A stretch of DNA of 38,799 nucleotides from an uncultured Mollicutes bacterium (GCA_900549915.1 URQF01000002.1:1-38799), one strand, 5' to 3'. Numbered from the stretch's first letter, positions 700 through 38,725 are shown. Program-made: numbers and translations. The notes: generated by a model from the letters alone, not told the origin.

Positions 700-2052
700 A
701 TGCTTATTTTTGACACAATTGTTGCTCTGGCAACGCCACCCTATAAGTCAGCGCTGGCTTTAATCCGAATCTCAGGTCCAAAGACAAAGGAAGTCTTGTC
801 CCATCTCATCAAGAAGAACAGGGATGAGGTAATTCCAAACCAAGCTTATTTCGTAAAGCTCTATAAAGACAAGAAAAATCCTGAAACAAAAATTGATGAA
901 GCCGTACTTGTCTTCTACAAAGGACCGAAGTCCTACACTGGATTTGACTCTGCTGATATTTCCATCCATGGTTCTAGGATTATTGCAGAAGAACTCAGGG
1001 ATGCTTGCTGCCTTTATGGAGCAAGAAGAGCAAAACAGGGAGAGTTCTCTGCCCAATCCTATTTCAATGGAAAAAGGGATTTACTGAAAGCAGAAGGTAT
1101 TAATGATCTCATTAATGCAAACAGCAAGGAAGCAAAGGACATCTCTAGGCGTACTCTAAGTGGTGAAAATACCAAAATCGTAGAAGACTTGAAAAATCGT
1201 TTTTTGGAATCCATCGCAGATTTGGAATACTACATTGAAAACCAGTACGATGAAAGTGAAGAAGACTATGAATCCTCTCTGAAAAATGTAAAAGAAAGAC
1301 TAGAGGAAGATGAAAAAGAACTCAGTCTTCTGATAGAGAAAACAAAGAAAGCCAATCAAAAATATTCTGGTTTCACTATCGCAATTGCCGGTGAACCAAA
1401 TGTTGGAAAATCAACTCTTTTAAATGCCATTGTCGGAGAAGACAAAGCTATTGTTTCGCCGATACCTGGAACAACAAGAGATGTCGTGGAAGGAGAAAAA
1501 GAAATCAACGGAATCAAGTTTTCCTTCAAGGATACCGCTGGAATACGAAAGTCAGATGATCCAATCGAGAATCTTGGAATCGAGCGTTCCTTCAAGACAA
1601 TCAAAGAAGCCGATCTTGTTCTTTTTGCTTCGGATAATGGATTCGATGACAGGAAGAAGAACAAAGACCTTCAGGATGTCTTAAAGGACAAGAAAGTCAT
1701 TCTTGTTGCAACAAAAAAAGATATCAGCAAATCAGAGAAAGATGCTGATATTTCCATCTGTTCCTTGAAAGATGATCTGACTCCTTTAAGGAACCTTAGG
1801 TTTGATTATCTAGATCTTAATCAGAAAGAAGATTCAAAATTCCTTGGTAAAAGAGAAGAAGAATTCCTTGAGAAAGTTCAGCAGAACGTAAGAGATACAC
1901 TGACAGCAAGGGAGACTAAGGATGTCGATGTCATCTGTGACACTTTACGTAGGTCTGTGTCTCTCCTGAATGAACTTGAGGGAAACAACCAAAATAAGAC
2001 AAGGGAAGATATCTATCAGACATTATTCAGCAAATTCTGTTTAGGAAAATAG
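700..2052 (+). CDS. mnmE: tRNA modification GTPase MnmE (TrmE)
   Basis: The N-terminus has the RISGP motif. G-domain motifs are GEPNVGKSTLLN, TTRD and DTAG, and the protein ends in CLGK. Eleven in-frame AGG codons are present and no internal ATG. AGG at 1075..1077 falls in NGK-x-DL, where homologues usually carry Met/Ile. Confidence 0.95.
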   Translation: MLIFDTIVALATPPYKSALALIRISGPKTKEVLSHLIKKNRDEVIPNQAYFVKLYKDKKNPETKIDEAVLVFYKGPKSYTGFDSADISIHGSRIIAEELRDACCLYGARRAKQGEFSAQSYFNGKRDLLKAEGINDLINANSKEAKDISRRTLSGENTKIVEDLKNRFLESIADLEYYIENQYDESEEDYESSLKNVKERLEEDEKELSLLIEKTKKANQKYSGFTIAIAGEPNVGKSTLLNAIVGEDKAIVSPIPGTTRDVVEGEKEINGIKFSFKDTAGIRKSDDPIENLGIERSFKTIKEADLVLFASDNGFDDRKKNKDLQDVLKDKKVILVATKKDISKSEKDADISICSLKDDLTPLRNLRFDYLDLNQKEDSKFLGKREEEFLEKVQQNVRDTLTARETKDVDVICDTLRRSVSLLNELEGNNQNKTREDIYQTLFSKFCLGK

Positions 2053-2053
2053 A

Positions 2054-2836
2054 ATGAGAATCATTGATACACATTGTCATCTTGATGATGACAAGCTCTA
2101 TAATATTTCAAAAGATGTTGTAAATAGAGCGAAAGAAGCAGGTGTTATTTATCTTTTTAATACAGCGGATTCCTTGCCATCCTTTGAACGGGTGTTGAAG
2201 CTTGAGGAAAGCTTCCAAGGAACCTGCTATTCGGTCCTTGGAATTCATCCGGAATTCGCTTTGGAAAGTGATGATTATTTCTTTGCTGCCTACAAAGAAA
2301 GGGAAGAGAGAAAGAATCAAATAAAAGCAATTGGTGAAATTGGATTAGACTATCACTATTCCAAAGATGAAACAGTGGTCTGTAAACAGAAGCAAAGATT
2401 CATCGAGCAGATTCGATTAGCTAAAAAGTGGAATCTTCCGATTGTTATTCATTCCCGAGATGCGGATTATGATACGTTCCAGATTATCAAAGAAGAGAAA
2501 CCGGAAAGCATCGATCTTCACTGCTATTCTGGAAGTTCAGAACTATTAGATGAATACTTGAGATTACCTGTCAAGATGCACATTGGAATCGGTGGAGTAT
2601 CCACTTTCAAGAATGCTAAGACAATCCAGAGAGTCATCAAAGAGCACGATATCTCTCTTTTCCTAAGTGAAACCGATTGTCCTTATCTTGCTCCGACCCC
2701 TCATCGCGGAGAAACCAATGAACCCTGTTATCTGCCATTGATTATCAATCAAATAGCAAGGCTAAAAGAAAAAGACGTAGAAGAAACAGCAGAACAGATC
2801 TATCAGAACGGAGCGACATTCTATGGAAGGAAATAG
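2054..2836 (+). CDS. tatD: TatD-family metal-dependent hydrolase/DNase (YabD-like)
   Basis: Motifs IDTHCHL, GEIGLDYHY, HSRDA, DLHCYSG and ETDCPYLAPTPHRGE (this Arg is CGC). The gene sits in the Firmicutes-typical order tatD-rnmV-ksgA. Confidence 0.9.
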   Translation: MRIIDTHCHLDDDKLYNISKDVVNRAKEAGVIYLFNTADSLPSFERVLKLEESFQGTCYSVLGIHPEFALESDDYFFAAYKEREERKNQIKAIGEIGLDYHYSKDETVVCKQKQRFIEQIRLAKKWNLPIVIHSRDADYDTFQIIKEEKPESIDLHCYSGSSELLDEYLRLPVKMHIGIGGVSTFKNAKTIQRVIKEHDISLFLSETDCPYLAPTPHRGETNEPCYLPLIINQIARLKEKDVEETAEQIYQNGATFYGRK

Positions 2837-3395
2837 GACAGAAAAAGAATGGATGGAACGGGAAAACCGGCGTTACATCTATATCTGTGAAGGAGCAACG
2901 GATGAAGACAAGCTAAGGAAGCTTGGCTGTCTGTTTGTAGTCAAAACCGGAGGGAAGTTTATCAAGAAAGATATTATTTCTTTTCTTCAGCTCTGCTACA
3001 AGGTCCGGGAACTTGTCATTATTACAGATCCGGATGGTCCAGGAAGAGATATCCAGAACTATATTGAAGAAAAAGTCGGTCCCTGCCATGTCATCGAAGC
3101 AAAGAAAGCAGATGCCATTAAAAAGGGAAAAGTCGGTATTGCGCAGAGGGAAAGGGAAGACCTCAAGAAGCTTCTTCGTCCTTATATCCGGCATGACATC
3201 ACAGTCGACGAGAATCTTTCCTTTGAAGATGAGACCTTCGAAGAACTTGGATTGACGGGGGCTGGAAGCAAAGCAAAAAGAAGGAAACTTGTCGAAAAAT
3301 ACCATTTGATCTATACATCCAGCAAGAATGTGGAAGATGCCAGGTTAAGGCTCTGCAAGACAAGAGAAGAACTAAGGGAGGATATTCAAGGATGA
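2823..3395 (+). CDS. rnmV: Ribonuclease M5 (TOPRIM domain, 5S rRNA maturase)
   Basis: TOPRIM motifs ICEGATDEDKL and IITDPDGPG. The stop is TGA at 3393..3395, overlapping the rsmA ATG (ATGA). An alternative in-frame ATG at 2853 gives an N-terminus closer to homologues. Confidence 0.85.
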   Translation: MEGNRTEKEWMERENRRYIYICEGATDEDKLRKLGCLFVVKTGGKFIKKDIISFLQLCYKVRELVIITDPDGPGRDIQNYIEEKVGPCHVIEAKKADAIKKGKVGIAQREREDLKKLLRPYIRHDITVDENLSFEDETFEELGLTGAGSKAKRRKLVEKYHLIYTSSKNVEDARLRLCKTREELREDIQG

Positions 3396-4207
3396 CAGAA
3401 CAGGGAAGAATTCAATCCTTACTGGATACGTATGGACTCTCTCCGAAGAAATCCTTCGGTCAGAATTTTTTAATCAACGAAGGAATCCTGAACCGGATTG
3501 TCAAAGGAAGGAACGTAGATTCCTTTGATACTGTCATTGAAATAGGTCCTGGCTTAGGTTCTAGGACTACCCGCATCCAACCATTAGCAAAGAAGCTAAT
3601 CTGTGTTGATGCAGACCGGGACAGGGTTGCTGTTCTAAAAGACTTATTCAAAGATAAAGAGAATACAACCATCATCAACTCTGATTTCCTTCGTTTTGAT
3701 CCAGATACCTGTTCAAAGAAAGAATCCCGTCTTAGGATGGGAAACCTTCCATACAACATTACTTCCGAACTTTTAAACTACAGGCTTGAAAAAGGATTCC
3801 AAAGTGCAGGAGTCATGGTGCAGAAAGAAGTCGCTGATAAACTGATTTATGAGCCGGATAAGAAAACAGATACTCCTCTAGGCGCTTATCTTAAAAGGAC
3901 AAGTGAGGTCAATGTTCTGACTTTTGTGGATCGTTCTTGTTTTAATCCGGTTCCAAAAGTCGACTCTGCTTTTATCCGGATTGACCATAAGAAAGATGTT
4001 ACTATCCGTGCTTTATCCGTTCTGACAGCTCTCTTCCGGGATCCAAACAAAACGAGGAACAACTGTCTCAAGAATGTCTATGGTAAAGATTTCCCGCTTT
4101 GCCTCTCGGAAGATACTAGAAATAGGCTCTCCTACCGGGCACGGCAATTAACAGCTGATGAACTAGAAAAGATTTGCTTAGACATCGACCATCATATCGT
4201 ACGATAA
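3392..4207 (+). CDS. rsmA: 16S rRNA (adenine1518/1519-N6)-dimethyltransferase RsmA/KsgA
   Basis: Motifs FGQNFL, EIGPGLGS-x-T (x is AGG at 3563..3565) and GNLPYNI. Confidence 0.92.
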   Translation: MTEQGRIQSLLDTYGLSPKKSFGQNFLINEGILNRIVKGRNVDSFDTVIEIGPGLGSRTTRIQPLAKKLICVDADRDRVAVLKDLFKDKENTTIINSDFLRFDPDTCSKKESRLRMGNLPYNITSELLNYRLEKGFQSAGVMVQKEVADKLIYEPDKKTDTPLGAYLKRTSEVNVLTFVDRSCFNPVPKVDSAFIRIDHKKDVTIRALSVLTALFRDPNKTRNNCLKNVYGKDFPLCLSEDTRNRLSYRARQLTADELEKICLDIDHHIVR

Positions 4208-4212
4208 TCCGT

Positions 4213-4248
4213 AAACAGGATTAGAGAAAAACTCTGACCCTGTTTTTT
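4213..4248 (+). terminator. Rho-independent terminator between the convergent rsmA and the minus-strand small ORF
   Basis: Arms aaacagg-att-agag and ctct-gac-cctgttt form an interrupted stem around an aaaaa loop, followed by a T run (to 4248). Confidence 0.5.
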
Positions 4249-4573
4249 ATTTCCGCCCCAGCAAGAAATCAGTCAAAGAAATAACTTCAATCTTATTCCC
4301 CTTAACGAAAAGCTCTCTCTTGTCTTCTTTCGTTACAATATAAAGCTTATATTTTCCGTTTTCCTTTTCGTTTAATCGTAAAAGTTGACTCACTTCTCTA
4401 TCAAAGGTTTCTTGTTTTTCCATTGAATAGCATGCCTGAACAGCAACATTTTCTTCTGTTTTGTCTATCATACTTTCTGCTTTTTGCGTTTTTTGGTCAA
4501 CACATTGACCGTTTTTATCTTTTTTTGTTAATTGTATTGACCGTATTATAAAAAAACAGATGCGTATATTCAT
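4247..4573 (-). CDS. Hypothetical small protein (start uncertain)
   Basis: The ORF-track frame is 4247..4735, but its first 127 nt overlap the permease 3' end in another frame. I trimmed it to the first ATG downstream of the permease stop. No recognisable motif and only a weak RBS. Confidence 0.3.
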   Translation of the reverse strand: MNIRICFFIIRSIQLTKKDKNGQCVDQKTQKAESMIDKTEENVAVQACYSMEKQETFDREVSQLLRLNEKENGKYKLYIVTKEDKRELFVKGNKIEVISLTDFLLGRK

Positions 4574-4608
4574 AGCTTCTATAGCTAAGAATACTTCAAA
4601 AATAGTTT

Positions 4609-5934
4609 TTAGTATGGTAGATAATTCAACACTGTCAACATGGAAAGAAGAGTCGGAATACAGATTGGAGCACAGTATTTTATAAAGGTAAGGTAGTTCC
4701 TTTTGATTTCCTGTTTTTTCAATAGATTCCTCCACCTAAGGCCCGCCAAGGCTCCAATCGGAGTGAAGAACGCAGCAACATTGGAAGCAATAATAGAGGC
4801 ATAGATGGCATTCGTCTGTGCTCCAGTAAGAAGAGTAGAGTAGAAAACAGCCCTAGGAATATTGTTAATCAGATTCGCGGTTAATAATCCGCTTAAACCA
4901 TAGGAAAAAACTTGGTTTGTACTTTGCAGTGCTTGGCTGATATGAAGACTCACACCTGTTTCATTAATAGCAAGGACAAGAACAAACCTAGATAAAACAA
5001 AAGAAATCAGGTTATAAGGAATTCGTTTGAGAGTAGGAACGATATGGTTCTCTTTTGTTACCAAGGCATAAACAAGACTGAAGATTAAAAGGGATAAAGC
5101 AAAGCAGAGAGCAATCAACCACCTAGGCCAATTACAGAAGGAAGAGATAGAAAGAAGGATCGTTGCCCCGCAAAGATGAATCAAACCAACAATTGTCGGA
5201 AACTTCTTCAGTTGAATGGATTGAGAATCATCCTGATAAAGGAGTGGATCCTTTAAGTTCTTATGGAAGATAATCAATAACCTGAGTAAGGAAACAAGGC
5301 CGCCGACAATTGTCGGAACACTCCTTTTCTCAAAATAAGTAAAGAACGAAATGTTCTCGTAAGAAGCCAGATAGATATTGGTTGGATTACCAATGATCAG
5401 TAGACTCGACCAAGTATTGGCAGCAACAAATTCCCTGATAAGGTAAGGAAGAGGAGAAACCTTGCATCGTTTGCAGAAATAACAAAGGAAGGGAGTAAAG
5501 GTAAGAATAATGATGTCATTGGAAGTAAAGACAGTCAGAACAGAAATCAAAAGATAAAGACAAAGGAACAGAGAATACTGGTTTTTTCTAAATCTCTTTG
5601 CAAAGCTTTCTGCCAGGAAAGAAAAGAATCCTTGTTCATCCAGGAAAATAGAGAGAATAGTCCTAGAAAGGAAGAGCACAAGAATCTTCAATGGATTGAT
5701 TCCGCTATCTGAAGTAAAGGATGAGATGACTTCCTTCCTATCTACACACTGGCATGCGAGTAGAAGAATGGCGCCAAGAAGAGTGACCATCCAGAAAGTC
5801 GATAAATGTAGCTTCCCTAGTTTAATGGAAGGAAAGAAGAGAGCAGTTACTAGGAAAAGTAAAATCGTTATGCAGGCAATGGATAAGCTCAGAACCATAT
5901 CATAAAAATTATAAGTACTTCCTTTTCCTAGCAA
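4609..5934 (-). CDS. ArsB/NhaD-superfamily (ion transporter superfamily) permease
   Basis: Polytopic membrane protein with the GNPTNIYLAS motif typical of ArsB/NhaD/CitMHS-type permeases. AGG codons at 4729..4731 and 4735..4737 lie in a hydrophobic segment (GL-x-W-x-NLL). Confidence 0.6.
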   Translation of the reverse strand: MLGKGSTYNFYDMVLSLSIACITILLFLVTALFFPSIKLGKLHLSTFWMVTLLGAILLLACQCVDRKEVISSFTSDSGINPLKILVLFLSRTILSIFLDEQGFFSFLAESFAKRFRKNQYSLFLCLYLLISVLTVFTSNDIIILTFTPFLCYFCKRCKVSPLPYLIREFVAANTWSSLLIIGNPTNIYLASYENISFFTYFEKRSVPTIVGGLVSLLRLLIIFHKNLKDPLLYQDDSQSIQLKKFPTIVGLIHLCGATILLSISSFCNWPRWLIALCFALSLLIFSLVYALVTKENHIVPTLKRIPYNLISFVLSRFVLVLAINETGVSLHISQALQSTNQVFSYGLSGLLTANLINNIPRAVFYSTLLTGAQTNAIYASIIASNVAAFFTPIGALAGLRWRNLLKKQEIKRNYLTFIKYCAPICIPTLLSMLTVLNYLPY

Positions 5935-6129
5935 TTCTGAAAACGCCTACATCGAAAAACAATGATGTCAAAGCAATACGAAATGTAGTTTTTTTCCAGC
6001 AAACACGCTCCTTAAAAACGCTATCTTGCTTGTTTTCTAATGTAGAAGGCAAAATCCGTTTTTCTTATTAACTCTAGGCGTTACAATGAATGGAAGCCAT
6101 TATCCGGCATCATAAACAGGTAATAAACG

Positions 6130-8334
6130 ATGAAAAAAAGCACACTGTCCATTCTTCTTTTCTTATCACTGCTACCTTTAGCAGGATGCGAAAAGACAAA
6201 TCGACCTTCACAAACAGAAACGCCTACCGTTTCTGCCACAGAGGCAAAAGCTGAAAAGATTTTATATATCGATAATTATCCGCTCACTGCTTATTACCAA
6301 TATGAATTGCTCGACTTATCGGATCTTGTCGTTGCTTCTCTTACTTATGTCAATGGTAAGCCGGTCGGAGAAAAAGAAATCATTACGGATTATCGAATTA
6401 CAGATGAAGAAAAGAATGTCATCCAAGATAAAAAGAGGCTAACAGAAACCGGTAACTATAACTACACAATCTCAAAAGAAGGATACACATCTTGTACTCT
6501 TTCTATTGAAGTCTATCCATCTACGGATTTCAAACAGACTCTAGGAATCACCTCTTATCCAAAAACGGGATATAAAATCGGTGAGACGTTCTCCCCAGAT
6601 GGGCTTTTGATGACTCTGAAAACGCATAGGAAGACAGAAGAAGGCGCAAAAGATTTTGCTGTTGCGGTCACAGACTATACAAGGACCATCGACGGAGAAG
6701 AGGCCAAAAACTATGTTTTCAGCGATTATAAGATGCATACCTTAAAAATCACTGTGGATGGCTACGCAGGTCCTATCAGTGTGAATATCTCCCTATCAGC
6801 AACTTCTGAAAACAACAAATTTGAAAAGAATTCATATTCTGATGACTCCGTGAGTTGGAAAGATAGTACATCAAAAATGAAATTGTCCATTTCTTCTGGA
6901 AAAGAAGAAAACGGAACACCAAGCACAAAGACTTTATATACTTCCGATGAGGTCAAGTTGAAGTATACAAGGGCAGACTATAGCCAAGCAAATATCTATA
7001 ACTGGCACTACATGCCATCCAAAGGAAACGTGCCATTGCTTGTCATACCAATTGTCATGCCGGGGTATGAAAACGATGCAACAAATGAAACATGGAAAAG
7101 AATCAACACCTGCTTCTTTGGAGACTCTTCCGATACCACTTTCGAGTCGCTTCGATCCTATTACTATAAATCTAGTTTTGGTCAGCTCAATCTGACAGGT
7201 GGCGTCACTGGATACGTCAACGCATCCGAGCTAGCTCCTTCTAGGAACACAGAGAATATTTCCAGTGATGACACTGCAAAATTAGCAGATCTTGCCTGCA
7301 GCTGGGCTAGGAAAACCTATAATCTAAACGCAAAAGATTTTGATACCGATCAAGACGGGACCATCGATGGCAGGTGGATTATTTATCTTCATGATATCGA
7401 TTCCAATAGCAACTACTGGGGCTTTACTGCCACCACAGGAAAAGTCGGCACGAAAGAGAATCCCTGCGTTAATAGCTATGGGTGGGCAGGAACACAGTTT
7501 TTGGATGACTACTGCTACACCTATCAGCATCAGGATATCAACGATGCCCATGTCATCATTCACGAAACAGGACATAGGTTAGGCCTTACCGATTACTACT
7601 CCTATGGAAAGCAAACCTATTCTCCTCTTGGCGGAAAAGATAGGATGGACAACAATGTCTTTGATCACAATCCCTATTCGAAGAGGTTGCTGGGCTGGGT
7701 GACTCCAAACGTAGTTACAGGGTCTGTCGATGATAGGAGCTTATACACTTCCTCTCATAAAGAGGATTCAAGGGTAGTCATTCCTTCGAACGATTATGTT
7801 CCAGAGATTGATTCAGACGGAAAACTCCTCTTCAATCCATTTGATGAATATCTAGTAATTGACTGCTTTGCAAACCGCAACAGGAACACAGAAGGATGGG
7901 AGATCTATCATAGGGATCCATTGAATGGACAAGGCGGACGAGTCTTCCATGTTGATTCCAGACTGATGGATTCTGATACGGGGAAGCTGACAGATGATCC
8001 AAGTTCTCTTTTCACTTTACAGAAAACAATAACAGGGTTAAAGGAACAGCCACACGCCTTACATCCGATTTCTAATACAGAATCCGGTGAACGCGCTGAA
8101 CACAACTATGGGCTCCCCAAGAGTGCAGATGCCTATGATGAAATCCGTCTTATTTCTGGATGGGGTGTTGATATTCCGCTTTCTCAAACTCACACTCAGT
8201 CCTTAGATGATCTCTTCAAAAAGAATCAATCATTCTCTCTGTCTTCCTTCCCAAACAAGTTCAACGGAAACGGATTCAACTCTGGTTCCTCTTGTTCCTA
8301 TAAAGTGACATTTGTTGACGTGCCATCCAACTAA
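6130..8334 (+). CDS. Secreted lipoprotein, M6 (immune inhibitor A)-like zinc metalloprotease
   Basis: Signal peptide with lipobox LPLAGC. Zinc site HETGH-x-LGLTDYY, where x is AGG at 7576..7578. The long N-terminal region looks like beta-rich, Ig-like domains. Confidence 0.7.
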   Translation: MKKSTLSILLFLSLLPLAGCEKTNRPSQTETPTVSATEAKAEKILYIDNYPLTAYYQYELLDLSDLVVASLTYVNGKPVGEKEIITDYRITDEEKNVIQDKKRLTETGNYNYTISKEGYTSCTLSIEVYPSTDFKQTLGITSYPKTGYKIGETFSPDGLLMTLKTHRKTEEGAKDFAVAVTDYTRTIDGEEAKNYVFSDYKMHTLKITVDGYAGPISVNISLSATSENNKFEKNSYSDDSVSWKDSTSKMKLSISSGKEENGTPSTKTLYTSDEVKLKYTRADYSQANIYNWHYMPSKGNVPLLVIPIVMPGYENDATNETWKRINTCFFGDSSDTTFESLRSYYYKSSFGQLNLTGGVTGYVNASELAPSRNTENISSDDTAKLADLACSWARKTYNLNAKDFDTDQDGTIDGRWIIYLHDIDSNSNYWGFTATTGKVGTKENPCVNSYGWAGTQFLDDYCYTYQHQDINDAHVIIHETGHRLGLTDYYSYGKQTYSPLGGKDRMDNNVFDHNPYSKRLLGWVTPNVVTGSVDDRSLYTSSHKEDSRVVIPSNDYVPEIDSDGKLLFNPFDEYLVIDCFANRNRNTEGWEIYHRDPLNGQGGRVFHVDSRLMDSDTGKLTDDPSSLFTLQKTITGLKEQPHALHPISNTESGERAEHNYGLPKSADAYDEIRLISGWGVDIPLSQTHTQSLDDLFKKNQSFSLSSFPNKFNGNGFNSGSSCSYKVTFVDVPSN

Positions 8335-8336
8335 GC

Positions 8337-8599
8337 TAAGACTGAGGCCGCCAGGCCAAGAGCTAGCCTAGATGTTCAAGGTCAATCGGACCCTTGAAAT
8401 CCAGAAGCTAACCGACTACACTAAGAATGATTTCAATAATTGCTGCTAGGTCTGCCAGTATGTCTAAGACATACCTTAAGACTGATGCAGCTTTTTTAAA
8501 TTTCACCCTGGCTTCGCCTTGATGGCCTGGCGGTCGTCAGTATAAGACCTCATCTGGATTAATCCTCCATTTCCGGTCTCACCTAATATGGGAACGGAA
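8337..8599 (+). repeat. Copy B of the 264-bp conserved non-coding element
   Basis: It starts 2 nt after the protease stop codon (8332..8334) and aligns end to end with 172..435. Homology ends at cggaa (8599), 26 nt from the integrase stop. Confidence 0.85.
8442..8497 (+). terminator. Intrinsic terminator of the metalloprotease gene (inside repeat copy B)
   Basis: Stem gctgc (8442..8446) / gcagc (8487..8491) with the inner gtatgtc/gacatac hairpin, followed by T6 (8492..8497). Confidence 0.55.
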
Positions 8600-9637: not shown

Positions 9638-10519
9638 TCACATCCCTTTGCTTAGAATGTATTTAATATCCTCTATCCTGCTTTCTCTATCTCCGATAAC
9701 AGCAAGCTTACCAGATTCAATCGTAGAAAGCCTACGTTCTGCTTTCCTATTCAGACGATCAAGAATCAAATTATCAATAGGACCAAAGAGAGAACATGGC
9801 TTACTTATCGCATAGTAATAATGAGTATGAGTACCTTGTTCAAGTCCTACACGATTGATACGATCCTTAGACTGCAGCCTATAAGTCAAATTGAACCCGT
9901 ACTCAAGATAGATAGCATCATGGCAAACCCTATGAAGAGAAACAGACTCTGCTAATGTATTTGGATTTGTAATCAACACCTGCGTTCCTGAGTACTTGAA
10001 ATCGTTGATCTTATTGTCTCTGAGGAATACATCATCTCTTCCACAGATTGTTGTACAGCGAATGCCGAAAGAAGTAAGAGCTGAAGAAAGATAATCAATC
10101 GTATCAATAAAAAGACACCAGACAAGAACTTTTCTTCCTTGGGATACCAAAGTCTTGATTTTATCAATTGTTGCTTGCCTCTTACTTGCAATCTTTACTT
10201 GTTCTAGAATCTGATTCAGCTCATCTTCTGGAAAGGAGGACTCCTCCAAATTCAGGTGGCCGAAATCCTGTTTGTTGTCATCATCATATAGTCTATCCAT
10301 CTCTTCCATCGATATTCTTCTTTTTAAGAGCAGGGGATTGGAAGAAGCTTGAATCAACCGAATATACTTAAGCAAAGGATTCTGGATATACTTCCATATC
10401 AGCTGATAGAGTTTTCCTTCTCCTTCCGTAGGTGTAACACAAAGAGAATCATAATCATCTGGATCAGGAAGAGGAACATTGAGTTCTTTTTTCGTTGTCC
10501 GTACAAAATAGGGAAGCAA
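9638..10519 (-). pseudogene. SNF2-family helicase, C-terminal half only (5'-truncated)
   Basis: The helicase C-terminal domain is present (KVLVWCLF, QVLITNPNTLAESVSL, LQSKDRINRVG with both Arg as CGT). No SNF2 N-terminal ATPase/DExH part is present, and no open frame continues upstream of 10519. Confidence 0.6.
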
Positions 10520-11147: not shown

Positions 11148-11254
11148 AACCCATTGTTCACTCGCGGTGTCTCTTTCATTATAGAAGTTGCTTTATATGC
11201 GAACCTTACGTGCTGTCCATTAATTGTTTCATTACAGGAATAATTTGAATTTAT

Positions 11255-30653: not shown

Positions 30654-31400
30654 GTGGTAAATTTTCAATATTACAAAGATGTTTGGGACCATTGTCGGGA
30701 GATTCTGAAGAAGTACTATATCAAAGACTTCAAAAACCAAATTACATCTTATAAGCAAGGAGAAGTCTTTTACGATGAAGCTCCGGCATATAGGAAAACC
30801 TTTCCAAAGCTTGGAAGATTCGATAACTTTTTCTATTATGCCTATTCTAAGAAAGAATTCCATCCTAAGAATTTCCTTACCGAACAGCCAAAAGATGCCG
30901 TCTACTGGAAATATTACAGGAAAGATGGAAAACCTCTATTAGTCAATTTCTGTATTCCTGTCATTTCAATAAATTATGATGACTTAGCAAAAGATTACAT
31001 TCCGATTGATATCGGGTATTTCATCTATGATCGTAACATAGGGGACATTACCAACTTCTGCATCACAGAGGAGAAAGAAGACGGAAGGCATTATCTAGAT
31101 ATCACTACTGGGTACAGGATGGTAGAAGAAACCGAGCCTTTCTTTGTTACAGAATATGTTGTCTCAAAGGACAGAAAACGAGTGGATTCTTATTTGAGGA
31201 ACGGACTTGTTTGCTTTCACAGACATGCTACACTCTACCATAATCAGGACTATAGGGATTCAGTTCGAGAAGACAGCAAATTCGTCCGGATTTCAGACCT
31301 GAAAATACCAGTTTTAAAAGAAACAAGGAAACCCTATGTACAGGGAGATCAGACTTCTCATTATAAGAAGCTGATTAAGGAAGGATTTAAACCAGTATAA
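30654..31400 (+). CDS. Hypothetical protein (248 aa) at the prophage truncation junction
   Basis: GTG start with GGAG 8 nt upstream. No recognisable motif. Opposite strand to all flanking genes. Confidence 0.5.
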   Translation: MVNFQYYKDVWDHCREILKKYYIKDFKNQITSYKQGEVFYDEAPAYRKTFPKLGRFDNFFYYAYSKKEFHPKNFLTEQPKDAVYWKYYRKDGKPLLVNFCIPVISINYDDLAKDYIPIDIGYFIYDRNIGDITNFCITEEKEDGRHYLDITTGYRMVEETEPFFVTEYVVSKDRKRVDSYLRNGLVCFHRHATLYHNQDYRDSVREDSKFVRISDLKIPVLKETRKPYVQGDQTSHYKKLIKEGFKPV

Positions 31401-31518
31401 CAATCCAATAAGAGAGTTGTTCTACTATAGTTTGATTCAAGCACATCGAAAAAAGCTGTTTTCTTTTGAAATAAAGCAAGAACACGGATTCTTAGATTAA
31501 GGATTTGATTCTCTTAAA

Positions 31519-31556
31519 CAAATCAAAAGACCCGCTTTATCCTTTCAAAACGGGTC
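31519..31556 (-). terminator. Rho-independent terminator of the ABC/kinase operon
   Basis: On the minus strand, the stem gacccg (31556..31551) / cgggtc (31534..31529) is followed by ttttgattt. Confidence 0.45.
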
Positions 31557-31590
31557 CTGGTTAAAATGGAAATAATGATTTGATTTAAAA

Positions 31591-32892
31591 CTACCTAAGT
31601 CCGGCAATATAAGATTGCCCAAGGCGACGGAAATGCTCATCCGAAGTAAACACTTCAATAGAAGACAGACCTTTGTTCTGAAGATATTCTTTTGTACCAA
31701 GCAACAGGTATTCGCCTCCTTTTCCTGTCCTGACTCTACCTAAAGCAAGAACAGATGTGAAAGGAAGAAAACGATGGAAGAAAGTAAGAGCAGAACCGAG
31801 ATAAGTCCCCATTTCCTTATAGCACTCAAGAACAACCGGATTATTCTTATCTGCTTCTTTCTGTATCTGGACAAGTTGTTGGGGAAGCGTACCGTCAAAA
31901 GAAATACCGGCATTCTTGCTTAGACGGATAATTCCTTTTTGAGAAAGATATTCAGTACCTGCTCCTTTAATGCCTAAATCATAATGAGAATAGGCGGACG
32001 GAGAATAGTCTAGCGGAATCTTACCCCATTCATTAATCCATCCATTGAAGGAAGAATGACAGCAGTATCCGCTAGCAAGCCCTGTTCCAAAAGCAAGTCC
32101 GACAATATTGTCTTTCTTAAAAACAAGACTTCCTCCAAAGGCAGATATATCTCCATCATTATGTACAAGAACAGGAACATTCGAAAATTCTTTTTTTGCG
32201 ATGTCCATGAAAATGGACCGTACATAGCGATCCTTATCCTCTTGAGGAACAGACATGAATAGAGTCGGTTCTAGAAGCTGGTTATGAGAAACAACACCAG
32301 CCGTCGAGATTCCGATAGAGTCCACATGAGGAAGATGACTAGCTGCGTGTTTAAGACTCTCTAAAATTCCATTGTAGTGATAATGATAGTCTTTTTCACA
32401 CTTAGGAGACCACAATACTTCTTCGGAAAAGACATCCTTTCCATCGATGATAGCTGTGACCTTGCGATCACTGCCGCCTTCATCAAAACCAATCCGGCAT
32501 CCTTTGCTCTCCCCGTTTAATCTTGTCCAAGAACATCTGTCTTTATAGATCTGTCTCGTAGAGGTAAAAGAAAAAGGTGTCTGGAAGATACGTTCCATCC
32601 GCTTTATGCTGGTATTCATCTCCTCATCATTCCGAATTCTCTGTTTCCTAAAATCAAAGAAGAAAGCATCGCCATTGAATTTAAAGTCCGTACCACCAAC
32701 AAGCCACATTAAAGTAAGAAGAATCTTCTTTATATAGTAAAAGGATTCTTCCCTATTATCACTATGTAGTCCGTGATAAGTATAGGAGATCTCATCCCCG
32801 CGCTGAATGGTCAGCAAATACGGATGGTGGCTTCTCCCCTCAAAAGAGGAGAGAGCACTATCCGCGCCGATGAAATCGGAATTATATTTCAT
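31591..32892 (-). CDS. ROK-like sugar kinase (ASKHA fold) with an N-terminal extension
   Basis: Motifs GFDEGGSD (phosphate-1-like), IGISTAGVV, LVHNDGDISAFGG and LAFGTGLASG. The ROK zinc-Cys motif is absent. The gene starts 3 nt after the ATPase stop. Confidence 0.55.
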   Translation of the reverse strand: MKYNSDFIGADSALSSFEGRSHHPYLLTIQRGDEISYTYHGLHSDNREESFYYIKKILLTLMWLVGGTDFKFNGDAFFFDFRKQRIRNDEEMNTSIKRMERIFQTPFSFTSTRQIYKDRCSWTRLNGESKGCRIGFDEGGSDRKVTAIIDGKDVFSEEVLWSPKCEKDYHYHYNGILESLKHAASHLPHVDSIGISTAGVVSHNQLLEPTLFMSVPQEDKDRYVRSIFMDIAKKEFSNVPVLVHNDGDISAFGGSLVFKKDNIVGLAFGTGLASGYCCHSSFNGWINEWGKIPLDYSPSAYSHYDLGIKGAGTEYLSQKGIIRLSKNAGISFDGTLPQQLVQIQKEADKNNPVVLECYKEMGTYLGSALTFFHRFLPFTSVLALGRVRTGKGGEYLLLGTKEYLQNKGLSSIEVFTSDEHFRRLGQSYIAGLR

Positions 32893-32895
32893 GGA

Positions 32896-35604
32896 TTAGT
32901 CCGCTAGAATTTCGAGTAAGCCAGAGGAAATCCTCTTTCCAGAAACCTTATCAAAGAGAAGAATGCCTTTTCCTTTGGTATTAATCTCCAAAGTCTCGTT
33001 CCTACTATAGTCAGAATCACCGAAAATAACAGAAGTCAGAAGATAGCCATCGACAGAAAGACGGATGGTCGTTTCCCTGCCGGAAGGCATTGCGGAATAG
33101 ACTTTTCCTTCCATGCCTTTTCCTTGTTCAGCAATCGTGAAGAACTCAGGACGGATACCAATGACATAATCATCTTTTTCAATGACTTTCTCATCACGAC
33201 GTTCTTTATCACCATCCTCAGTTAACCTGTGATAGTTGAAGAGAGTATCTTTGTTTCCTTTTTCAACATAGGAACGAAGTTTCTTTAAACGAAGAAGTTC
33301 TTCTTCTTTCTTCTCTGCTTCCAAATCTCGTGTCTTGATTTCCTCTTCTAAGGAAATCGGTGCATTCGGATAGAAGACTGCATGCCGATTATTAAAGAAA
33401 GTCCTATATAAAGAACCATCTTCTCTCTCCTTTACCTTCGTTTCAATGAAGGTAATCGCTGGATTACCGACAAAGTCAGCAACAAAGAGATTATTCGGAC
33501 GACGATAGACCGTCAATGGTGCATCATACTGCTGAAGAACACCATTGTTCAATAAGCAGATGTGGGTGGCAAGAGTCCTTGCTTCGAGCTGATCATGGGT
33601 AACATAGACAAAGGTAGCTCCGGTATCCCGGTGCAAACGCTTAAGCTCAGAACGCCTTTCCAGACGAAGCTTTGCATCAAGGTTGGAAAGCGGTTCATCC
33701 CTGAAGAGAACCTTCGGTCCAGGAGCTAACGTACGTGCAATAGCAACACGCTGCTGCTGACCACCAGATAATTCATTCGGGAAACGATCCCTGAATTCTT
33801 CGACTTTGACAATACGGGCTGCATGGCGAAGTTTCAACTCGATTTCTTCTTTGTCCAAAGCACGGACTTTGGAAAGATGGCAGGCTTTTCCATTAATCTT
33901 GGAGATAGCAATATTCCTCTCGCCACGGGCAGAATTGATAAGGGAAGTGTATTTTTCCCTCTCCATAGAGTAATCCTTCAGAGTCTTGTATTTTGGCTCT
34001 AAGGCAGCATAAGTCCTCTTAACAAGGGAAGCAGCAGCCTCGCGGATCCTATCATGAGCTTCTTTGTACTCTTTCTTATTTGGATGAGAGACCGATTCGA
34101 CGACTTCTTCCAAGAATTCAACAAGACCATTACGGATAGCTTCTTCTGTTCCAAGGCAAGCATCATCTGCTTTTTCATAGAAAGCTTTGATGGCATGGTT
34201 CTTCTTGGCTTCATCGATGTGATTGACTAAGTCAAGGACATTGGCTTTAGCTTCCGGAACAACACGTTCTGCCTGATCAAGGAACCGTTTCCTAGCCGCT
34301 TTGTTTGCTTTATGATCAACCTTGTAACTAGCCCCTTCCACGTATTCGAATGATTTGATAATCTTGTTCTGATCTTCTTTCGGAAGATAAGAGATTTCCT
34401 TCTTCAGGGAAGAATAGAATTCATCAAGGGTTCCATGTCCGATAGCAGAGATAAGTTTATCGAAATAAGGTTCAATACCCTCGCTGATCTGCAAAGAATA
34501 GTTCCGCATCGTCTTATTGTTCGAAACCATCTGGGCATTGATTTTCTTTTCATCATTGGTTGCATAAGCTACCATCCTCTGCTGAAGCAAAAGAATCGTC
34601 CTATGAATAGAATCATCTCCAAGGAAGAAAAGAGAATCCTTGATTTCTTCAAAGAACGCATTAATCTTATCTTTTTCTTCTAGATAAGCAGGAATATTCT
34701 CTTCCCTAATCTGGATATCCTTTTTCAGAACTTCACGTTCGCTCAAAGGAAGAAGACTCCTAGCTTCCTTCCTCTTCTCGATATGATTCGCTAAATGTTG
34801 ATTCTTCTCAGAAAGCTTCCTCTCAACACCAAAGAGACGATTTTCCTCTTTCAGAGTATCTCCCGCTTTTTCAAGTGCATAAGCCTGCTTGAGGAAGGAG
34901 TCTACATTTCCGCCATCTGTCCTAGCCTTGTTATAGCCTGGAATCTGAACAAGCTGACCATCATCTAAGACCTGAATATCTTTCTGCATCCAAGCTGCTT
35001 TCCTTTGATCCAAAGCAGCATTGCATTCTGAGATTTTCAAAGCGACCTTATTCTCGACATCGCCATTTTCCAAATGAAGCTTAAATACTTCCTTTGCAGT
35101 GTATTGACTGACTGTGAATTCATCAATAATCTTGATGATAGCACGGCTATCAATAATACGTCCTTTCTTGTCTTTGGCATCATTGACAAGCTTAATGACT
35201 TTATTAGGATCCTGAAGAACACGAATAACATCCTTACGAGTCTTGTATTTGAAATCACAGACCGGGAGCTTTTCCTTGACGTTCTTAAGACCGAAAGTGA
35301 TGTTCTGATAGACGGTCCTATTGGGCCAGAGAGCATAGTTCTGGAAAAGGAAACCGACATCACGCTTATTAGCAGGAATGTTGATACCTGCCTCGGAATC
35401 AAAGACAACCTTATCGCCGATTTTGATTTGTCCGGAAGTCGGTGTTTCAAGACCCGCAATCCTACGAAGGATGGTTGTCTTACCGCATCCGGAAGGTCCT
35501 AAAAGAGTAATGAACGACTTGTCTGGAATATCTAAGCTGACATGATCGGTTGCATAGAAGTCTTTCCAGCGTTTGACAATATCCGTTAAAACAATACTTG
35601 GCAT
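32896..35604 (-). CDS. ABC transporter ATP-binding protein, MalK/MsmX/UgpC type, with a ~470-aa internal insertion
   Basis: Walker A is GPSGCGKTT. TILR-[AGG]-IAGLE has its AGG at 35461..35463. FQNYALWPN-[AGG]-TV has its AGG at 35317..35319. The signature is LSGGQQQRVAIAR (both Arg are CGT). Walker B LF-[AGG]-DEPLSNLD has its AGG at 33700..33702. LE-[AGG]-R has its AGG at 33655..33657. THDQLEA-[AGG]-TLA has its AGG at 33577..33579. A C-terminal regulatory domain is present. Confidence 0.92.
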   Translation of the reverse strand: MPSIVLTDIVKRWKDFYATDHVSLDIPDKSFITLLGPSGCGKTTILRRIAGLETPTSGQIKIGDKVVFDSEAGINIPANKRDVGFLFQNYALWPNRTVYQNITFGLKNVKEKLPVCDFKYKTRKDVIRVLQDPNKVIKLVNDAKDKKGRIIDSRAIIKIIDEFTVSQYTAKEVFKLHLENGDVENKVALKISECNAALDQRKAAWMQKDIQVLDDGQLVQIPGYNKARTDGGNVDSFLKQAYALEKAGDTLKEENRLFGVERKLSEKNQHLANHIEKRKEARSLLPLSEREVLKKDIQIREENIPAYLEEKDKINAFFEEIKDSLFFLGDDSIHRTILLLQQRMVAYATNDEKKINAQMVSNNKTMRNYSLQISEGIEPYFDKLISAIGHGTLDEFYSSLKKEISYLPKEDQNKIIKSFEYVEGASYKVDHKANKAARKRFLDQAERVVPEAKANVLDLVNHIDEAKKNHAIKAFYEKADDACLGTEEAIRNGLVEFLEEVVESVSHPNKKEYKEAHDRIREAAASLVKRTYAALEPKYKTLKDYSMEREKYTSLINSARGERNIAISKINGKACHLSKVRALDKEEIELKLRHAARIVKVEEFRDRFPNELSGGQQQRVAIARTLAPGPKVLFRDEPLSNLDAKLRLERRSELKRLHRDTGATFVYVTHDQLEARTLATHICLLNNGVLQQYDAPLTVYRRPNNLFVADFVGNPAITFIETKVKEREDGSLYRTFFNNRHAVFYPNAPISLEEEIKTRDLEAEKKEEELLRLKKLRSYVEKGNKDTLFNYHRLTEDGDKERRDEKVIEKDDYVIGIRPEFFTIAEQGKGMEGKVYSAMPSGRETTIRLSVDGYLLTSVIFGDSDYSRNETLEINTKGKGILLFDKVSGKRISSGLLEILAD

Positions 35605-35607
35605 AGT

Positions 35608-37422
35608 TTAATTTCCTCCGACGCCTTTATCGATAGAAGCACCCGTAAGCTTATTGACAATCAAATTGAAGAGAAGAACCGTTAAGATGATAAGAAGGTT
35701 GAGAGCATTTGCCGACTGCGGCCACCACTGCATCCAGCTATCAAGCAAGGTTGTCCTTAATACAGTCTGTCCAGAAGCAAGAAGGACAAACAGAGATAAC
35801 TCACGCCTGCAGGAAGTGAATGGTAAGAGGTATCCAGAGATAACAGTTGATTTCTGGATAGGAACGATGATTCGAAGCATACGTTTCCACCAAGGAATGT
35901 TCTGAATAACGGCTGATTCTTCGATTTCTCCAGAGAGCTGCCTCCTAGCAGAGATACCGCTACGGGAAGCAAATGGAAGATACTTGAAGGCTCCAACGAG
36001 AATGAGAAGAACAATAGAATTCTGGATGCCAAGCGTTGTTCCAATACTTAAGAAAGCAGCACCTAAAGCCATGGAAGGCCTGAGGTAAGGTAAGAAGGCC
36101 AGATTATCGACTAACGAAGAAAGGAAAGTACCACGACGTTTTGCAACTGCATATCCAATTAAGATACCAAGCGTACCAGCAATCAAACAGCAAGAAACTG
36201 ACAAGAGTATCGAGTTCCGGAAAGCAAGCCATACTTGCGGTTCAAATAAAATACCGACTAATCCGTTACCCGCATCTGTCTCTGTCCGACTGATCCAGTA
36301 CTGAAGTGTCCTAGTGGAATAGTCTCCAGAACGAACACAAAGAGATTCTAATGCAAAGGTAATTAAAGGAAGAACCGAGCAGAACAAGGATAAGAAGACA
36401 AGGATAACAGCAATAGGATAGTTCCATCCACGAAGCTTGATATAAGAGACCTGACCGGATTTTCCAGTAACCGTGGTAAAGTTCTTACGCTTGCCAGTGA
36501 ACCACTGATTGAGAAGAAGAATACCAACACCTAAGACAATCCTGACAATAGCAAAGATATAGGCCTGTCCGTAGAATCCTTTGTTTGTAAACTGCTTCCT
36601 ATAGGTAGTGAGAACGTCTTGTCCACCGCCAAGGTACTGAGGAACAGCATAAGCAGACCTTGAAGACGAAAAGACTAAAAGGAAGGTAGAAATAATCGAA
36701 GGCATAACAATCGGAAGAGTAATCTTTCTTGTGATTTTCCAGCGGCTTGCCTTTAAAATTGTTGCTGCTTCTTCTAAGTTGGCATCCCTATTACGTAAGA
36801 TACCACCGATAAGAATGTAGGCAAACGGAGCATAGTGCCTTCCTAATACAACAGCACAGGGGACGATACCATAAACCATTCCGTTTGGAACCGAAATATG
36901 GAATAAGTTATAGAGCATACCGCCAACACCAGTACCAATGCTCGGATTCTGGAAGAAGTTCTGCCAGAAGGTAGCCAAAGTCCAAGAAGGCCTGATATAC
37001 GGGAAGACGAAGATACTGGAAAGGAATTTCTTTGCCTTGATATCAGTTCGAGTAATCAAGAAGGCGACAATGCCTCCATAGAGAATAGCGATAACACTCG
37101 CTAGAAGCGACATTTCCAATGAATTCAATAAAGGCTTCCAGAAATATGTTTTTGACCTCGAACTGGCAAAAACACGATTCCACCAGGCTGTCGTGAAGGA
37201 GCCTGGAATCAAGCCAAATACAATTTCACTGATGCTGACCGTAAATGTTGACTGGACAAGAGAAACCAAAGGATAAATCGTGAAAACAAGAAGAACCGCT
37301 GCAAAAATCACAAGCAGAACATTCGCAGGTACAGAAAAGTACCGGCGAACACTGTTCAAACTATGTTTGATTTTTCCTTCTTTCTTTGGCCTATGGTCGA
37401 TAATTAAATCCCTATTAGCCAT
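35608..37422 (-). CDS. ABC transporter permease, fused double domain (about 12 TM)
   Basis: Two EAA-type loops are present: NLEEAATILKASRWKITRKITLP and EIEESAVIQNIPWWKRMLRIIVP. An AAGGAG RBS is present. AGG at 36787..36789 (LRN-x-D) and 36079..36081 (LPYL-x-PS) lie in normally hydrophobic positions. Confidence 0.85.
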   Translation of the reverse strand: MANRDLIIDHRPKKEGKIKHSLNSVRRYFSVPANVLLVIFAAVLLVFTIYPLVSLVQSTFTVSISEIVFGLIPGSFTTAWWNRVFASSRSKTYFWKPLLNSLEMSLLASVIAILYGGIVAFLITRTDIKAKKFLSSIFVFPYIRPSWTLATFWQNFFQNPSIGTGVGGMLYNLFHISVPNGMVYGIVPCAVVLGRHYAPFAYILIGGILRNRDANLEEAATILKASRWKITRKITLPIVMPSIISTFLLVFSSSRSAYAVPQYLGGGQDVLTTYRKQFTNKGFYGQAYIFAIVRIVLGVGILLLNQWFTGKRKNFTTVTGKSGQVSYIKLRGWNYPIAVILVFLSLFCSVLPLITFALESLCVRSGDYSTRTLQYWISRTETDAGNGLVGILFEPQVWLAFRNSILLSVSCCLIAGTLGILIGYAVAKRRGTFLSSLVDNLAFLPYLRPSMALGAAFLSIGTTLGIQNSIVLLILVGAFKYLPFASRSGISARRQLSGEIEESAVIQNIPWWKRMLRIIVPIQKSTVISGYLLPFTSCRRELSLFVLLASGQTVLRTTLLDSWMQWWPQSANALNLLIILTVLLFNLIVNKLTGASIDKGVGGN

Positions 37423-37498
37423 TTTTATCTCCTTAATGGGGAAGAAGGACGGAGAAACCTTCTCCGTCCTTCTACAGATTCAGAATCAAATACGAATT

Positions 37499-38725
37499 TT
37501 ACTTCTTATTACCGACTATCTGGTTGATCCAGTCTTCTGTTTCGACTTTGACAGTATTGATGTATTCGCCATCTTCCCTGACAAGGTTCTGTTTATAGAA
37601 AGCAAGATCTTTCTTATCGTCTTTATTCTTAGCAATCGTATGATTGGAAGAGTAGCATCCAATGGACTTTCCCCAAGGATTAAATCCTTCTGCTGTCCTC
37701 CTGTAGTTGGTAAAGAGCCTTGCAGTATATGGACGTGGTGCCTTAGTTGTTAACTGAGCATATAAGGCATAACCAAAGCCAGAGAACGGAGCAATTGGTT
37801 TGTCTTGCCAAGCACCGACAGTGAGGTTGTCAGCAACAACAGAGCTATCACGGAGTTTAGAAAGAACGAATAATCCCATCTTTCCAGCGTTCTTTGTGTC
37901 CGAAAGACCGGCTGCTAACTTTGTATCAGAGGTATAAGACTTAATATCAGCATTAGCTAAGAATTTTCCAATCCACTCATAGGAAGCATTCTTGTAACCA
38001 GCAGAAGCAACATAGTCTTTCTTGAAATAGTCTTTATAAGCCTGAGTCCTCTTAGCAACCCAGGTGTCTTTCGTTAACCTGGTCAAGAAGTTCCTGTTAA
38101 CCATTTCAGAGTTCGGGTTCTTGAAGTAAATTTTATCTTTGAATTTTGCTTCCGTAAGTTCCCAGACATTAGAGATGTTCGGAACATCTGTACCAGTGTT
38201 GTTCCAGATAAAAAGCTTATTGATATATTGATCGACAAGCGGAACAAGATCGCCTTCATCAAGGTTTGCTTTGAAGGTGTCACTGACATAGTTGGTCAGA
38301 ATTTTGGTGGGACTATTACGATAAGTAGCTAACCTAGCAGAATCCTGAATTAAAACGAAGGAAGCACCACTCGAATTATCCTTGGCAGAATATTCAGTAG
38401 TAATCTTGGTATAGATTTCAGAGTCCTTCCTCTTTGTACCAGTGGATTTTGCCGGATCAAGATTGAGTGCAGGATACTTTTTGATAAAGTCTTTAACAGC
38501 ATCAGCAATACGAGAAGAGTTACCGTAAGCTTTGAATGTGCCAGTCTCAGCTTTTGCTTTTTCTAATAATTCAGCATCAGTCCTTTTAGTTCCTAAGACA
38601 AACGGATCTGTAACTGTCGGTTCAGTACCTTTTCCACCGGCTGTCGTAGGAGTAGAATTAGAAGTTCCACCGCATCCAACTAATAGCGGTAAAAGTAAGA
38701 GAGTAAGACCAAAATGTTTTTTCAT
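37499..38725 (-). CDS. ABC transporter substrate-binding lipoprotein
   Basis: Signal peptide with lipobox LLVGCGG. It is the first gene of the operon, preceded by AAAGGAGG. The size and pattern fit a type-I/II solute-binding protein; the substrate is unknown. Confidence 0.75.
   Translation of the reverse strand: MKKHFGLTLLLLPLLVGCGGTSNSTPTTAGGKGTEPTVTDPFVLGTKRTDAELLEKAKAETGTFKAYGNSSRIADAVKDFIKKYPALNLDPAKSTGTKRKDSEIYTKITTEYSAKDNSSGASFVLIQDSARLATYRNSPTKILTNYVSDTFKANLDEGDLVPLVDQYINKLFIWNNTGTDVPNISNVWELTEAKFKDKIYFKNPNSEMVNRNFLTRLTKDTWVAKRTQAYKDYFKKDYVASAGYKNASYEWIGKFLANADIKSYTSDTKLAAGLSDTKNAGKMGLFVLSKLRDSSVVADNLTVGAWQDKPIAPFSGFGYALYAQLTTKAPRPYTARLFTNYRRTAEGFNPWGKSIGCYSSNHTIAKNKDDKKDLAFYKQNLVREDGEYINTVKVETEDWINQIVGNKK

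Follow-up and report, generated by a model that had tools for sequence, protein, structure and literature searches.

A 38.8 kb stretch of DNA from an uncultured Mollicutes bacterium (GCA_900549915.1, URQF01000002.1:1-38799; GC 0.40), referred to here as the window, raises the question of which amino acid is specified by its AGG codons. The window comprises two chromosomal gene blocks separated by mobile DNA, and a first-pass annotation, made from the sequence alone, had claimed that AGG is reassigned from arginine to methionine throughout it. Four independent lines of evidence agree in supporting this claim across the window, namely the alignment columns occupied by AGG together with the likelihoods computed from them, the interchange of AGG and ATG among relatives, codon usage, and, at the clade level, the tRNA that would read the codon. 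We are highly confident that AGG is a Met sense codon here and that the window comes from an AGG-to-Met lineage of Bacilli (UBA7642/Candidatus Enterosoma, CAG-288, RFN20), in which AGG would act as the main internal Met codon, ATG would remain at start positions and at a minor share of internal sites, and Arg would be encoded by CGN and AGA only. The AGG-to-Met code, its clade, its tRNA and phages that use it are already known: the code was published for a three-species clade of the Genome Taxonomy Database (GTDB) genus UBA7642, in family CAG-288 of the order RFN20 (Shulgina and Eddy, 2021; PMC8629427), and was revisited in 2026 (NAR; PMC13092985). The first-pass annotation had pointed to the 2021 study as the only report of AGG read as Met, and the pointer was apt, the same code having been published for this group.

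AGG codons at conserved protein positions

Deep alignments were made for two host proteins, MnmE and the ATPase of an ABC transporter, and for one phage protein, Tal, the other proteins being aligned pairwise. MnmE (700-2052, plus strand) is encoded with 11 AGG codons and a single ATG, which is the start codon. When it was aligned with 114 homologues, each at most 65% identical, the AGG codons at aa93, aa126 and aa435 occupied columns where 90, 108 and 106 of the 114, respectively, have M; the other eight were in columns of the I/L/V/T type, and no AGG codon coincided with an R column, while the AGA and CGN codons of this gene occupy columns that are R in 112-114 of the 114 homologues. The site at aa126 (NGK-[AGG]-DL, 1075-1077) is the one previously singled out as a near-invariant Met of this protein. 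In the ABC transporter ATPase (902 aa; 32896-35604, minus strand; 24 AGG, 8 ATG), seven AGG codons at aa48, 96, 605, 635, 650, 676 and 843 (first bases at 35463, 35319, 33792, 33702, 33657, 33579 and 33078) occupy columns in which M is the residue of 108-114 of the 114 homologues, where five such sites had been claimed. The invariant Arg residues of this ATPase, located in the Walker and signature motifs and in other columns, are all CGN codons. The further claim that invariant Arg is written with CGN or AGA holds for eleven ATPase columns in which all 114 homologues have R and for R23, R260, R283 and R385 of MnmE.

The pairwise alignments of the other host proteins place AGG mainly opposite hydrophobic residues. 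In RsmA, six of the eight AGG codons fall in the aligned stretch, opposite A, L, L, V, L and F of Bacillus subtilis KsgA, and the one at aa58 (3563-3565) faces the L of the GPGxGxLT motif. In TatD, AGG at aa83 is opposite L, and the conserved Arg residues of PHRGE and IHSRD are CGC and CGA. The AGG codons of the ABC permease (35608-37422, minus strand; 15 AGG) are opposite V or L at aa212, I at aa448 and M at aa539 of solved homologues, and in the ArsB-like permease they lie in hydrophobic or transmembrane contexts such as ILVLFLS[AGG]TILSIFL, GGLVSLL[AGG]LLIIF and LISFVLS[AGG]FVLVLAI. All the AGG sites named in the first-pass annotation were found in frame and correctly located, including both codons of the ArsB-like GL[AGG]W[AGG]N motif (aa400 and aa402) and those of the permease motifs LPYL[AGG]PS (aa448, 36079-36081) and LRN[AGG]D (aa212, 36787-36789). 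Their description as invariant or near-invariant Met is correct for MnmE aa126 and the ABC ATPase sites, but must be revised for RsmA aa58 and for both permease sites, which belong to L/I/V-type columns (I at aa448 and V/L at aa212).

The earlier suggestions of tabulating the consensus residue at in-frame AGG codons and of applying a Codetta-style inference were both followed, the latter as a log-likelihood computed from columns of standard-code homologues only, over the 29 alignable AGG codons of MnmE, the ABC ATPase and Tal. The majority residue at these 29 columns is M in 13, I in 6, L in 3, V in 2 and T in 2, and never R; M-majority columns thus hold 13 of 29 AGG codons and 0 of 60 CGN/AGA codons (Fisher p = 4.8e-8), and R-majority columns 0 of 29 and 32 of 60, respectively (Fisher p = 7.2e-8). 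The log-likelihood for AGG is +36.8 nats for Met, -6.0 for Ile, -13.5 for Leu and -38.3 for Arg. Thirteen control codons (ATG, AGA, the four CGN, AAA, AAG, CTG, TTA, ATT, ATA and GTT) were each assigned the standard meaning when the proteins were pooled; with Tal alone, CGA (n = 3) gave a near-tie between K (1.4) and R (1.3). For calibration, 52-82% of the true Met residues of standard-code homologues were found to occupy M-majority columns, and most of the others L or I columns; for true Ile or Arg residues, no M-majority column is among the six most frequent types, and M-majority columns make up 2-3% for true Leu in the ABC ATPase and Tal. Given this calibration, the profile of AGG is that of Met, and not that of Ile, Leu or Arg.

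Relatives, codon usage and the decoding tRNA

The comparison with close relatives leads to the same meaning. In four genes of a relative whose MnmE is 87% identical (contigs L011 and L012), the AGG codons of the window pair with AGG 26 times, with ATG four times and never with CGN or AGA, and CGN and AGA freely replace one another. In an ABC ATPase with 83% identity, M likewise stands at AGG positions of the window, and R at ATG positions. The host genes of the window contain, per 10,000 codons, 233.8 AGG, 73.2 internal ATG, 115.9 CGT, 26 CGC, 33 CGA, 49 CGG and 65.1 AGA, so that AGG accounts for ~76% of AGG plus internal ATG. These values closely match those published for the AGG-to-Met clade, whose eight genomes display 209-235 AGG, 59-69 AUG, 134-193 CGU and 59-74 AGA per 10,000 with a GC content of 0.42-0.46; standard-code neighbours have 204-262 AUG and mostly 6-54 AGG, reaching 82 and 178 in two CAG-568 genomes (Shulgina and Eddy, 2021; PMC8629427).

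The exact MnmE protein occurs on at least 22 contigs of several gut metagenome sets, from independent samples, and in the NCBI assembly GCA_037264135.1. MnmE sequences at 87% identity or more form three clusters, one of them that of the window, which shares 87-88% identity with the MnmE of two more lineages that use AGG (run SRR1747028 yielded one of them); below these, identity drops to 65% or less, and the homologues have M in place of the AGG codons of the window, a 53%-identical one bearing the NCBI name Candidatus Enterosoma, the genus in which the clade is now placed within family CAG-288, with nine genomes cited (PMC13092985). Membership of this clade had been left undecided by the first-pass annotation; based on codon signature and MnmE identity, the window genome very probably belongs to the published AGG-to-Met clade (GTDB UBA7642/Candidatus Enterosoma). 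As its MnmE is so similar to those of two other in-clade lineages, the window lineage may correspond to a species among the published three or to an additional one. It resembles the clade in the codon involved, the new meaning, the predominance of AGG over AUG, the preference for CGU as Arg codon and the retention of AGA, as well as in the tRNA(CCU) design with a tandem tRNA-Arg(CCG), the animal or human gut metagenome habitat and a GC content of ~0.40-0.44; it differs in that the assemblies carrying the locus (GCA_037264135.1, and ENA/Logan contigs of the BOND22, MUNK18 and LIUW16 sets) are outside the eight genomes of 2021.

According to the proposed mechanism, AGG would be read by a dedicated tRNA with anticodon CCU, shown at the clade level. 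A search for such a tRNA, also advised beforehand, succeeded in part: a Met-type tRNA(CCU) was recovered from two AGG-rich metagenome contigs, whereas no tRNA gene was found in the window or its reachable flanks, including the region upstream of mnmE, and therefore the link of the tRNA to this genome is by clade. Metagenome contigs were scanned with a relaxed pattern of tRNA(CCU) followed by tRNA(CCG), with matches on at least 120 contigs. Among the matches listed, only L073 (a 259-kb contig) and L171 combine G70, C71 and A73 in tRNA(CCU), and they carry an identical 77-nt gene (L073, 5047-5123; L171, complement of 1509-1585) with the sequence GGCCGGGTAGCTCAGCATGGTAGAGCAACCGTCTCCTAAGCGGTTTGTCACGAGTTCGATTCTCGTCTCGGCCACCA, or by segment GGCCGGG-TA-GCTC-AGCATGGTA-GAGC-A-ACCGT-CTCCTAA-GCGGT-TTGTC-ACGAG-TTCGATT-CTCGT-CTCGGCC-A-CCA. 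This tRNA(CCU) displays G2:C71, C3:G70, A73, U20 (and hence no A20) and a 5-bp anticodon stem, and 13 nt downstream of it lies an ordinary tRNA-Arg(CCG) with A20 and the anticodon loop CTCCGAA, the tandem spanning 5047-5213 of L073 and 1419-1585 of L171. Open reading frames (ORFs) flanking the tRNA in these contigs have AGG/ATG counts of 17/3, 5/2 and 6/2. A tRNA(CCU) with Met identity elements is thus shown to exist in genomes with this codon signature; furthermore, the two loci differ in GC content (0.44 and 0.40) and in flanking sequence, and therefore correspond to two species with one common tRNA. The tRNA(CCU) design and its tRNA-Arg(CCG) neighbour have been described for the AGG-to-Met clade (PMC8629427; PMC13092985), and the pair recovered here is exactly the one that the 2021 paper describes.

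The other tRNA(CCU) genes, as seen in the 25 closest to the reference of the at least 120 matches, are Arg-type: their D loops belong to the GGATAGAGC/GGACAGAGC class, and position 73 is G except in a few genes with A or C there, which lack the G2:C71 and C3:G70 pairs. The tandem of tRNA(CCU) and tRNA(CCG) is common in environmental metagenomes (at least 120 matches, L058-L177), and a scan of genome contigs with a tandem pattern requiring a CTCCGGA loop in the second tRNA returned 29 unrelated matches. We propose that the 77-nt tRNA(CCU) would descend from a tRNA-Arg, having gained the elongator tRNA-Met acceptor set (G2:C71, C3:G70, A73) and lost the ArgRS determinant A20; because of this identity set and the loss of A20, it is expected to be charged by MetRS. 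The window genome probably carries a Met-type tRNA(CCU) too.

The mobile DNA and the rival readings of AGG

Between the chromosomal blocks lie a tyrosine integrase gene (8626-9564, minus strand; 9 AGG), a C-terminal fragment of an SNF2-type helicase gene (9638-10519, minus strand; 6 AGG), cut at ~10544-10547, and ~20 kb of phage tail and lysis genes that constitute a truncated prophage (10544-30554, minus strand; 26 AGG, 98 internal ATG). The prophage genes are ordered as the end of a tape-measure gene (~630 residues), a gene for an 871-aa protein, one for a 2073-aa Tal, fibre protein genes, a holin gene and a 105-aa gene. The tape-measure protein is 2140-2147 aa long in relatives found on contigs of 57 kb and 91 kb, and only its last ~630 residues are left in the window, joined to ~30 unrelated codons with nothing upstream; the remnant holds neither a full-length tape-measure gene nor a complete set of structural, packaging and replication genes. 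Homology to other strains stops at 10547, inside the SNF2 gene, which encodes at least 679 aa elsewhere (L002, L004), and homology to phage relatives covers 10544 to 30554; at this left end, the SNF2 and phage homologies overlap by 4 bp. The right junction between prophage and host DNA is the same in three independent assemblies, so that an assembly chimera was ruled out and 10544-30554 is a decayed prophage. The 871-aa protein occupies the position of the distal tail protein, is unannotated and has no family match; its comparison with IMG/VR gave no match, an exact look-up of the integrase returned no record, and a search of Tal against a phage collection gave only relatives at 37% identity or less.

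Sequences of mobile origin could have retained AGG as Arg from a standard-code donor, an explanation that was rejected at conserved sites by the Tal, integrase, SNF2 and tape-measure alignments. In Tal, the columns of the AGG codons at aa206, 372 and 414 are M or L in all 108 homologues (M in 79, 47 and 99, respectively), and AGG and ATG replace each other at these three and further sites in relatives with 76-94% identity. All eight tape-measure AGG sites compared are ATG or hydrophobic in relatives. In a branch whose Tal is 55% identical, 11 of 18 aligned AGG codons of the window are ATG, and the AGG codons of that branch itself are in I/M/L/V columns. Regarding the integrase, AGG at aa204 is opposite L in seven and I in one of eight phage integrases, AGG at aa88 is opposite I, V or C, and the catalytic Arg residues have non-AGG codons; in the SNF2 fragment, AGG at aa197 faces the L of the G-x-N-L helicase motif. 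Taken together with the host genes, these positions indicate that the code would extend to whatever the cell expresses: in the 20-kb prophage, the integrase and the SNF2 fragment, too, AGG stands at Met or hydrophobic positions.

The frequency of the codon sets the prophage apart from the host. The remnant, taken at 10658-30648, has 40 AGG, 151 ATG and 103 AGA per 10,000 codons, AGG being about five- to six-fold rarer than in the host genes (Fisher p = 1.4e-20 for the AGG:ATG contrast), and its phage relatives (L045, L046 and L057, some on ~57 kb contigs) have 32-53 AGG and 167-179 ATG, with AGA as their main Arg codon. The preference for ATG over AGG holds between phage branches whose Tal is only 55% identical. 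Although AGG means Met in this phage family, its codon choice resembles that of standard-code relatives. Two phage assemblies from the baboon gut for which AGG was predicted to mean Met (GCA_902730795.1 and GCA_902730815.1), with 174-177 AGG and 95-99 AUG per 10,000 (PMC8629427), are likewise phages of a recoded host, relying on host tRNA and placing AGG at Met positions, and in the phage DNA of the present analysis, too, no tRNA turned up; they differ in having more AGG than AUG, compared with 32-53 AGG, 151-179 ATG and AGA as main Arg codon in the remnant and its relatives. That the ATG/AGA preference of the family, the inverse of that of the host, is kept by selection, and not by lack of time, is a tentative idea that we hold to be rather unlikely. 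Possible causes of the avoidance are a slightly ambiguous or slow decoding of AGG or, alternatively, a movement of phages between recoded and standard-code Enterosoma hosts that would limit their exposure to the code difference. If selection does act, the family would offer a natural system to measure a sense-codon change as a barrier to viruses and horizontal transfer.

Several points weigh against the reading of AGG as Met in this genome or limit its reach. The taxonomic placement is built on the codon signature and an 87-88% identical MnmE rather than on genome phylogeny; the window and its reachable flanks contain no tRNA gene, and tRNA(CCU) is accordingly documented for the clade and not for the window genome itself; charging by MetRS is predicted from identity elements alone, and C35 of the tRNA deviates from the Met anticodon. 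Moreover, AGG also occurs at variable, polar or basic-looking sites, namely aa65, 67 and 77 of the integrase (aa77 being a variable site with R in three of eight sequences), aa150 of MnmE, aa236 of TatD (opposite E or V) and aa214 of the SNF2 fragment (opposite D), all of which speak neither for nor against Met. Finally, a low-level reading of AGG by tRNA-Arg(UCU) through wobble is possible. A stronger form of this last point holds that AGG is ambiguous, decoded mostly as Met through tRNA(CCU) and in a fraction of cases as Arg through tRNA-Arg(UCU), with a proteome mixed at AGG sites. MnmE helps to build the xm5U34 modification that allows tRNA-Arg(UCU) to read AGA and, weakly, AGG, and the intact mnmE of the window fits with ambiguity, as would the lasting avoidance of AGG by the phage lineage, were the codon imperfectly reliable. 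The possibility of ambiguity through wobble has been raised before (PMC8629427). Conversely, AGG is found at near-invariant, buried Met positions of essential proteins and makes up about three quarters of the internal Met codons of the host, so that frequent Arg would be costly, and we consider this explanation improbable.

A reassignment of AGG to Ile or Leu would account for the 11 of 29 AGG columns with an I, L or V majority, although true Met residues show the same combination of M columns with spill-over into I and L. The likelihood prefers Met by ~43 nats over Ile and ~50 over Leu; the 13 M-majority columns of AGG are of a type that is not among the six commonest for true Ile or Leu in MnmE, nor for Ile in the ABC ATPase, and that reaches 2-3% for Leu in the ABC ATPase and Tal; AGG and ATG replace each other between close relatives, and the tRNA has Met acceptor elements. 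This reading is thus very unlikely. Least credible of all is the standard code, under which the pattern would arise by chance, from an unusual evolution of the proteins, or as an artefact of assembly or sequencing: no point was found in its favour, the public translations with R reflecting only the default table. The distribution of AGG and the other Arg codons over R-majority columns contradicts it, internal Met would fall to an implausible 0.73% of residues, and both the recurrence of the exact MnmE in independent samples and the prophage junction shared by three assemblies argue against an artefact. Met therefore stands as the preferred meaning of AGG.

Gene layout and significance of the code

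The left chromosomal block (700-8334) contains mnmE, tatD (2054-2836), a Toprim/rnmV-like gene (2823-3395) and rsmA (3392-4207) on the plus strand, the latter three with 19 AGG and 7 ATG together, followed by the ArsB/CitMHS-like permease gene (4609-5934, minus strand; 11 AGG), whose family was assigned by Pfam, and by a lipoprotein-like gene (6130-8334, plus strand) that has no Pfam match and shows host-type usage (14 AGG, 8 ATG). The right block (30654-38725) consists of a 248-aa gene of unknown function (30654-31400, plus strand; 7 AGG, 1 ATG), a 433-aa gene with no family match on record (31591-32892, minus strand), the genes of the ABC ATPase and permease, and that of a solute-binding lipoprotein (37499-38725, minus strand; 10 AGG, 3 ATG). 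The ABC ATPase includes a stretch of ~340 residues (~aa 206-563) between its N-terminal nucleotide-binding part and the signature motif, which is absent from ~540-aa homologues and common to four standard-code homologues (P0123-P0126, 53-54% identity).

Strains differ by ~1.1 kb between rsmA and the ArsB-like gene (~4458/4459 of the window): an ATPase gene of the AAA_14/DUF4143 type, encoding 421 aa, is present elsewhere (L007, 4007-5272; L008, 4140-5405), and the interval in the window has short ORFs only, which suggests a deletion or insertion polymorphism. Contigs L055, L056 and k141_57908 (L042) end exactly 74 bp past the start of the binding-protein gene, as the window does, and a break at ~8860, inside the integrase gene, occurs in three assemblies; these shared contig ends (38725-38799 and ~8860) suggest a repeat or strain heterogeneity at both points. 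In addition, a direct repeat of ~265 nt, 93% identical between its copies at 172-435 and 8337-8599, brackets the mnmE-to-lipoprotein block, its second copy adjoining the 3' end of the integrase gene. The repeat is GC-rich compared with its surroundings, folds far better than shuffled sequence on both strands (z ~ -3.6) and contains a hairpin followed by a T run; neither the repeat nor the whole window matched any Rfam family. It could be a structured RNA of a new type, a repeat element or an attachment-site duplication.

The warning that standard-code translations of these genes carry R instead of M is true of the public protein clusters; any translation of this organism with the standard table has ~2.3% wrong residues. 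The clusters P0001-P0004, P0121-P0122 and P0241-P0251, belonging to the organism and its phages, were translated with the standard table and have R at every AGG site; two further short ABC ATPase homologues show R at most invariant-Met columns and are probably recoded relatives. Such wrong R translations degrade homology searches, structure prediction and family profiles.

Other reassignments of Arg codons, namely CGG to Gln in Peptacetobacter, CGG to Trp in Anaerococcus and in an RFN20 clade, CGA and CGG to Trp in Absconditabacteria, and those of mitochondrial AGG (PMC8629427), similarly involve an Arg codon captured by another amino acid in low-GC lineages. In those cases the codon stays rare, whereas AGG has here recovered in frequency until it dominates among the codons of its new amino acid, and the tRNA has changed its charging identity and not its anticodon (PMC8629427). 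Sense-codon reassignment in free-living bacteria is known from a mere handful of lineages, and AGG-to-Met is the sole one of these cases in which the captured codon is dominant for its new amino acid. To the known system our results add further assemblies with the code, a tRNA recovered independently in two species backgrounds, and a fixed prophage remnant together with a phage family, both reading AGG as Met but using it five to six times more sparingly than the host. The independent assemblies from more gut samples, along with the tRNA(CCU) sequence given here, constitute a resource. The role of MnmE in separating AGA from AGG readings is a question of interest, mnmE being intact (700-2052) and AGG having to escape recognition by tRNA-Arg(UCU) in this organism. 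Lastly, a prophage remnant and a phage family that obey the altered code with a different codon preference are relevant to the notion of a changed code as a protection against mobile DNA.

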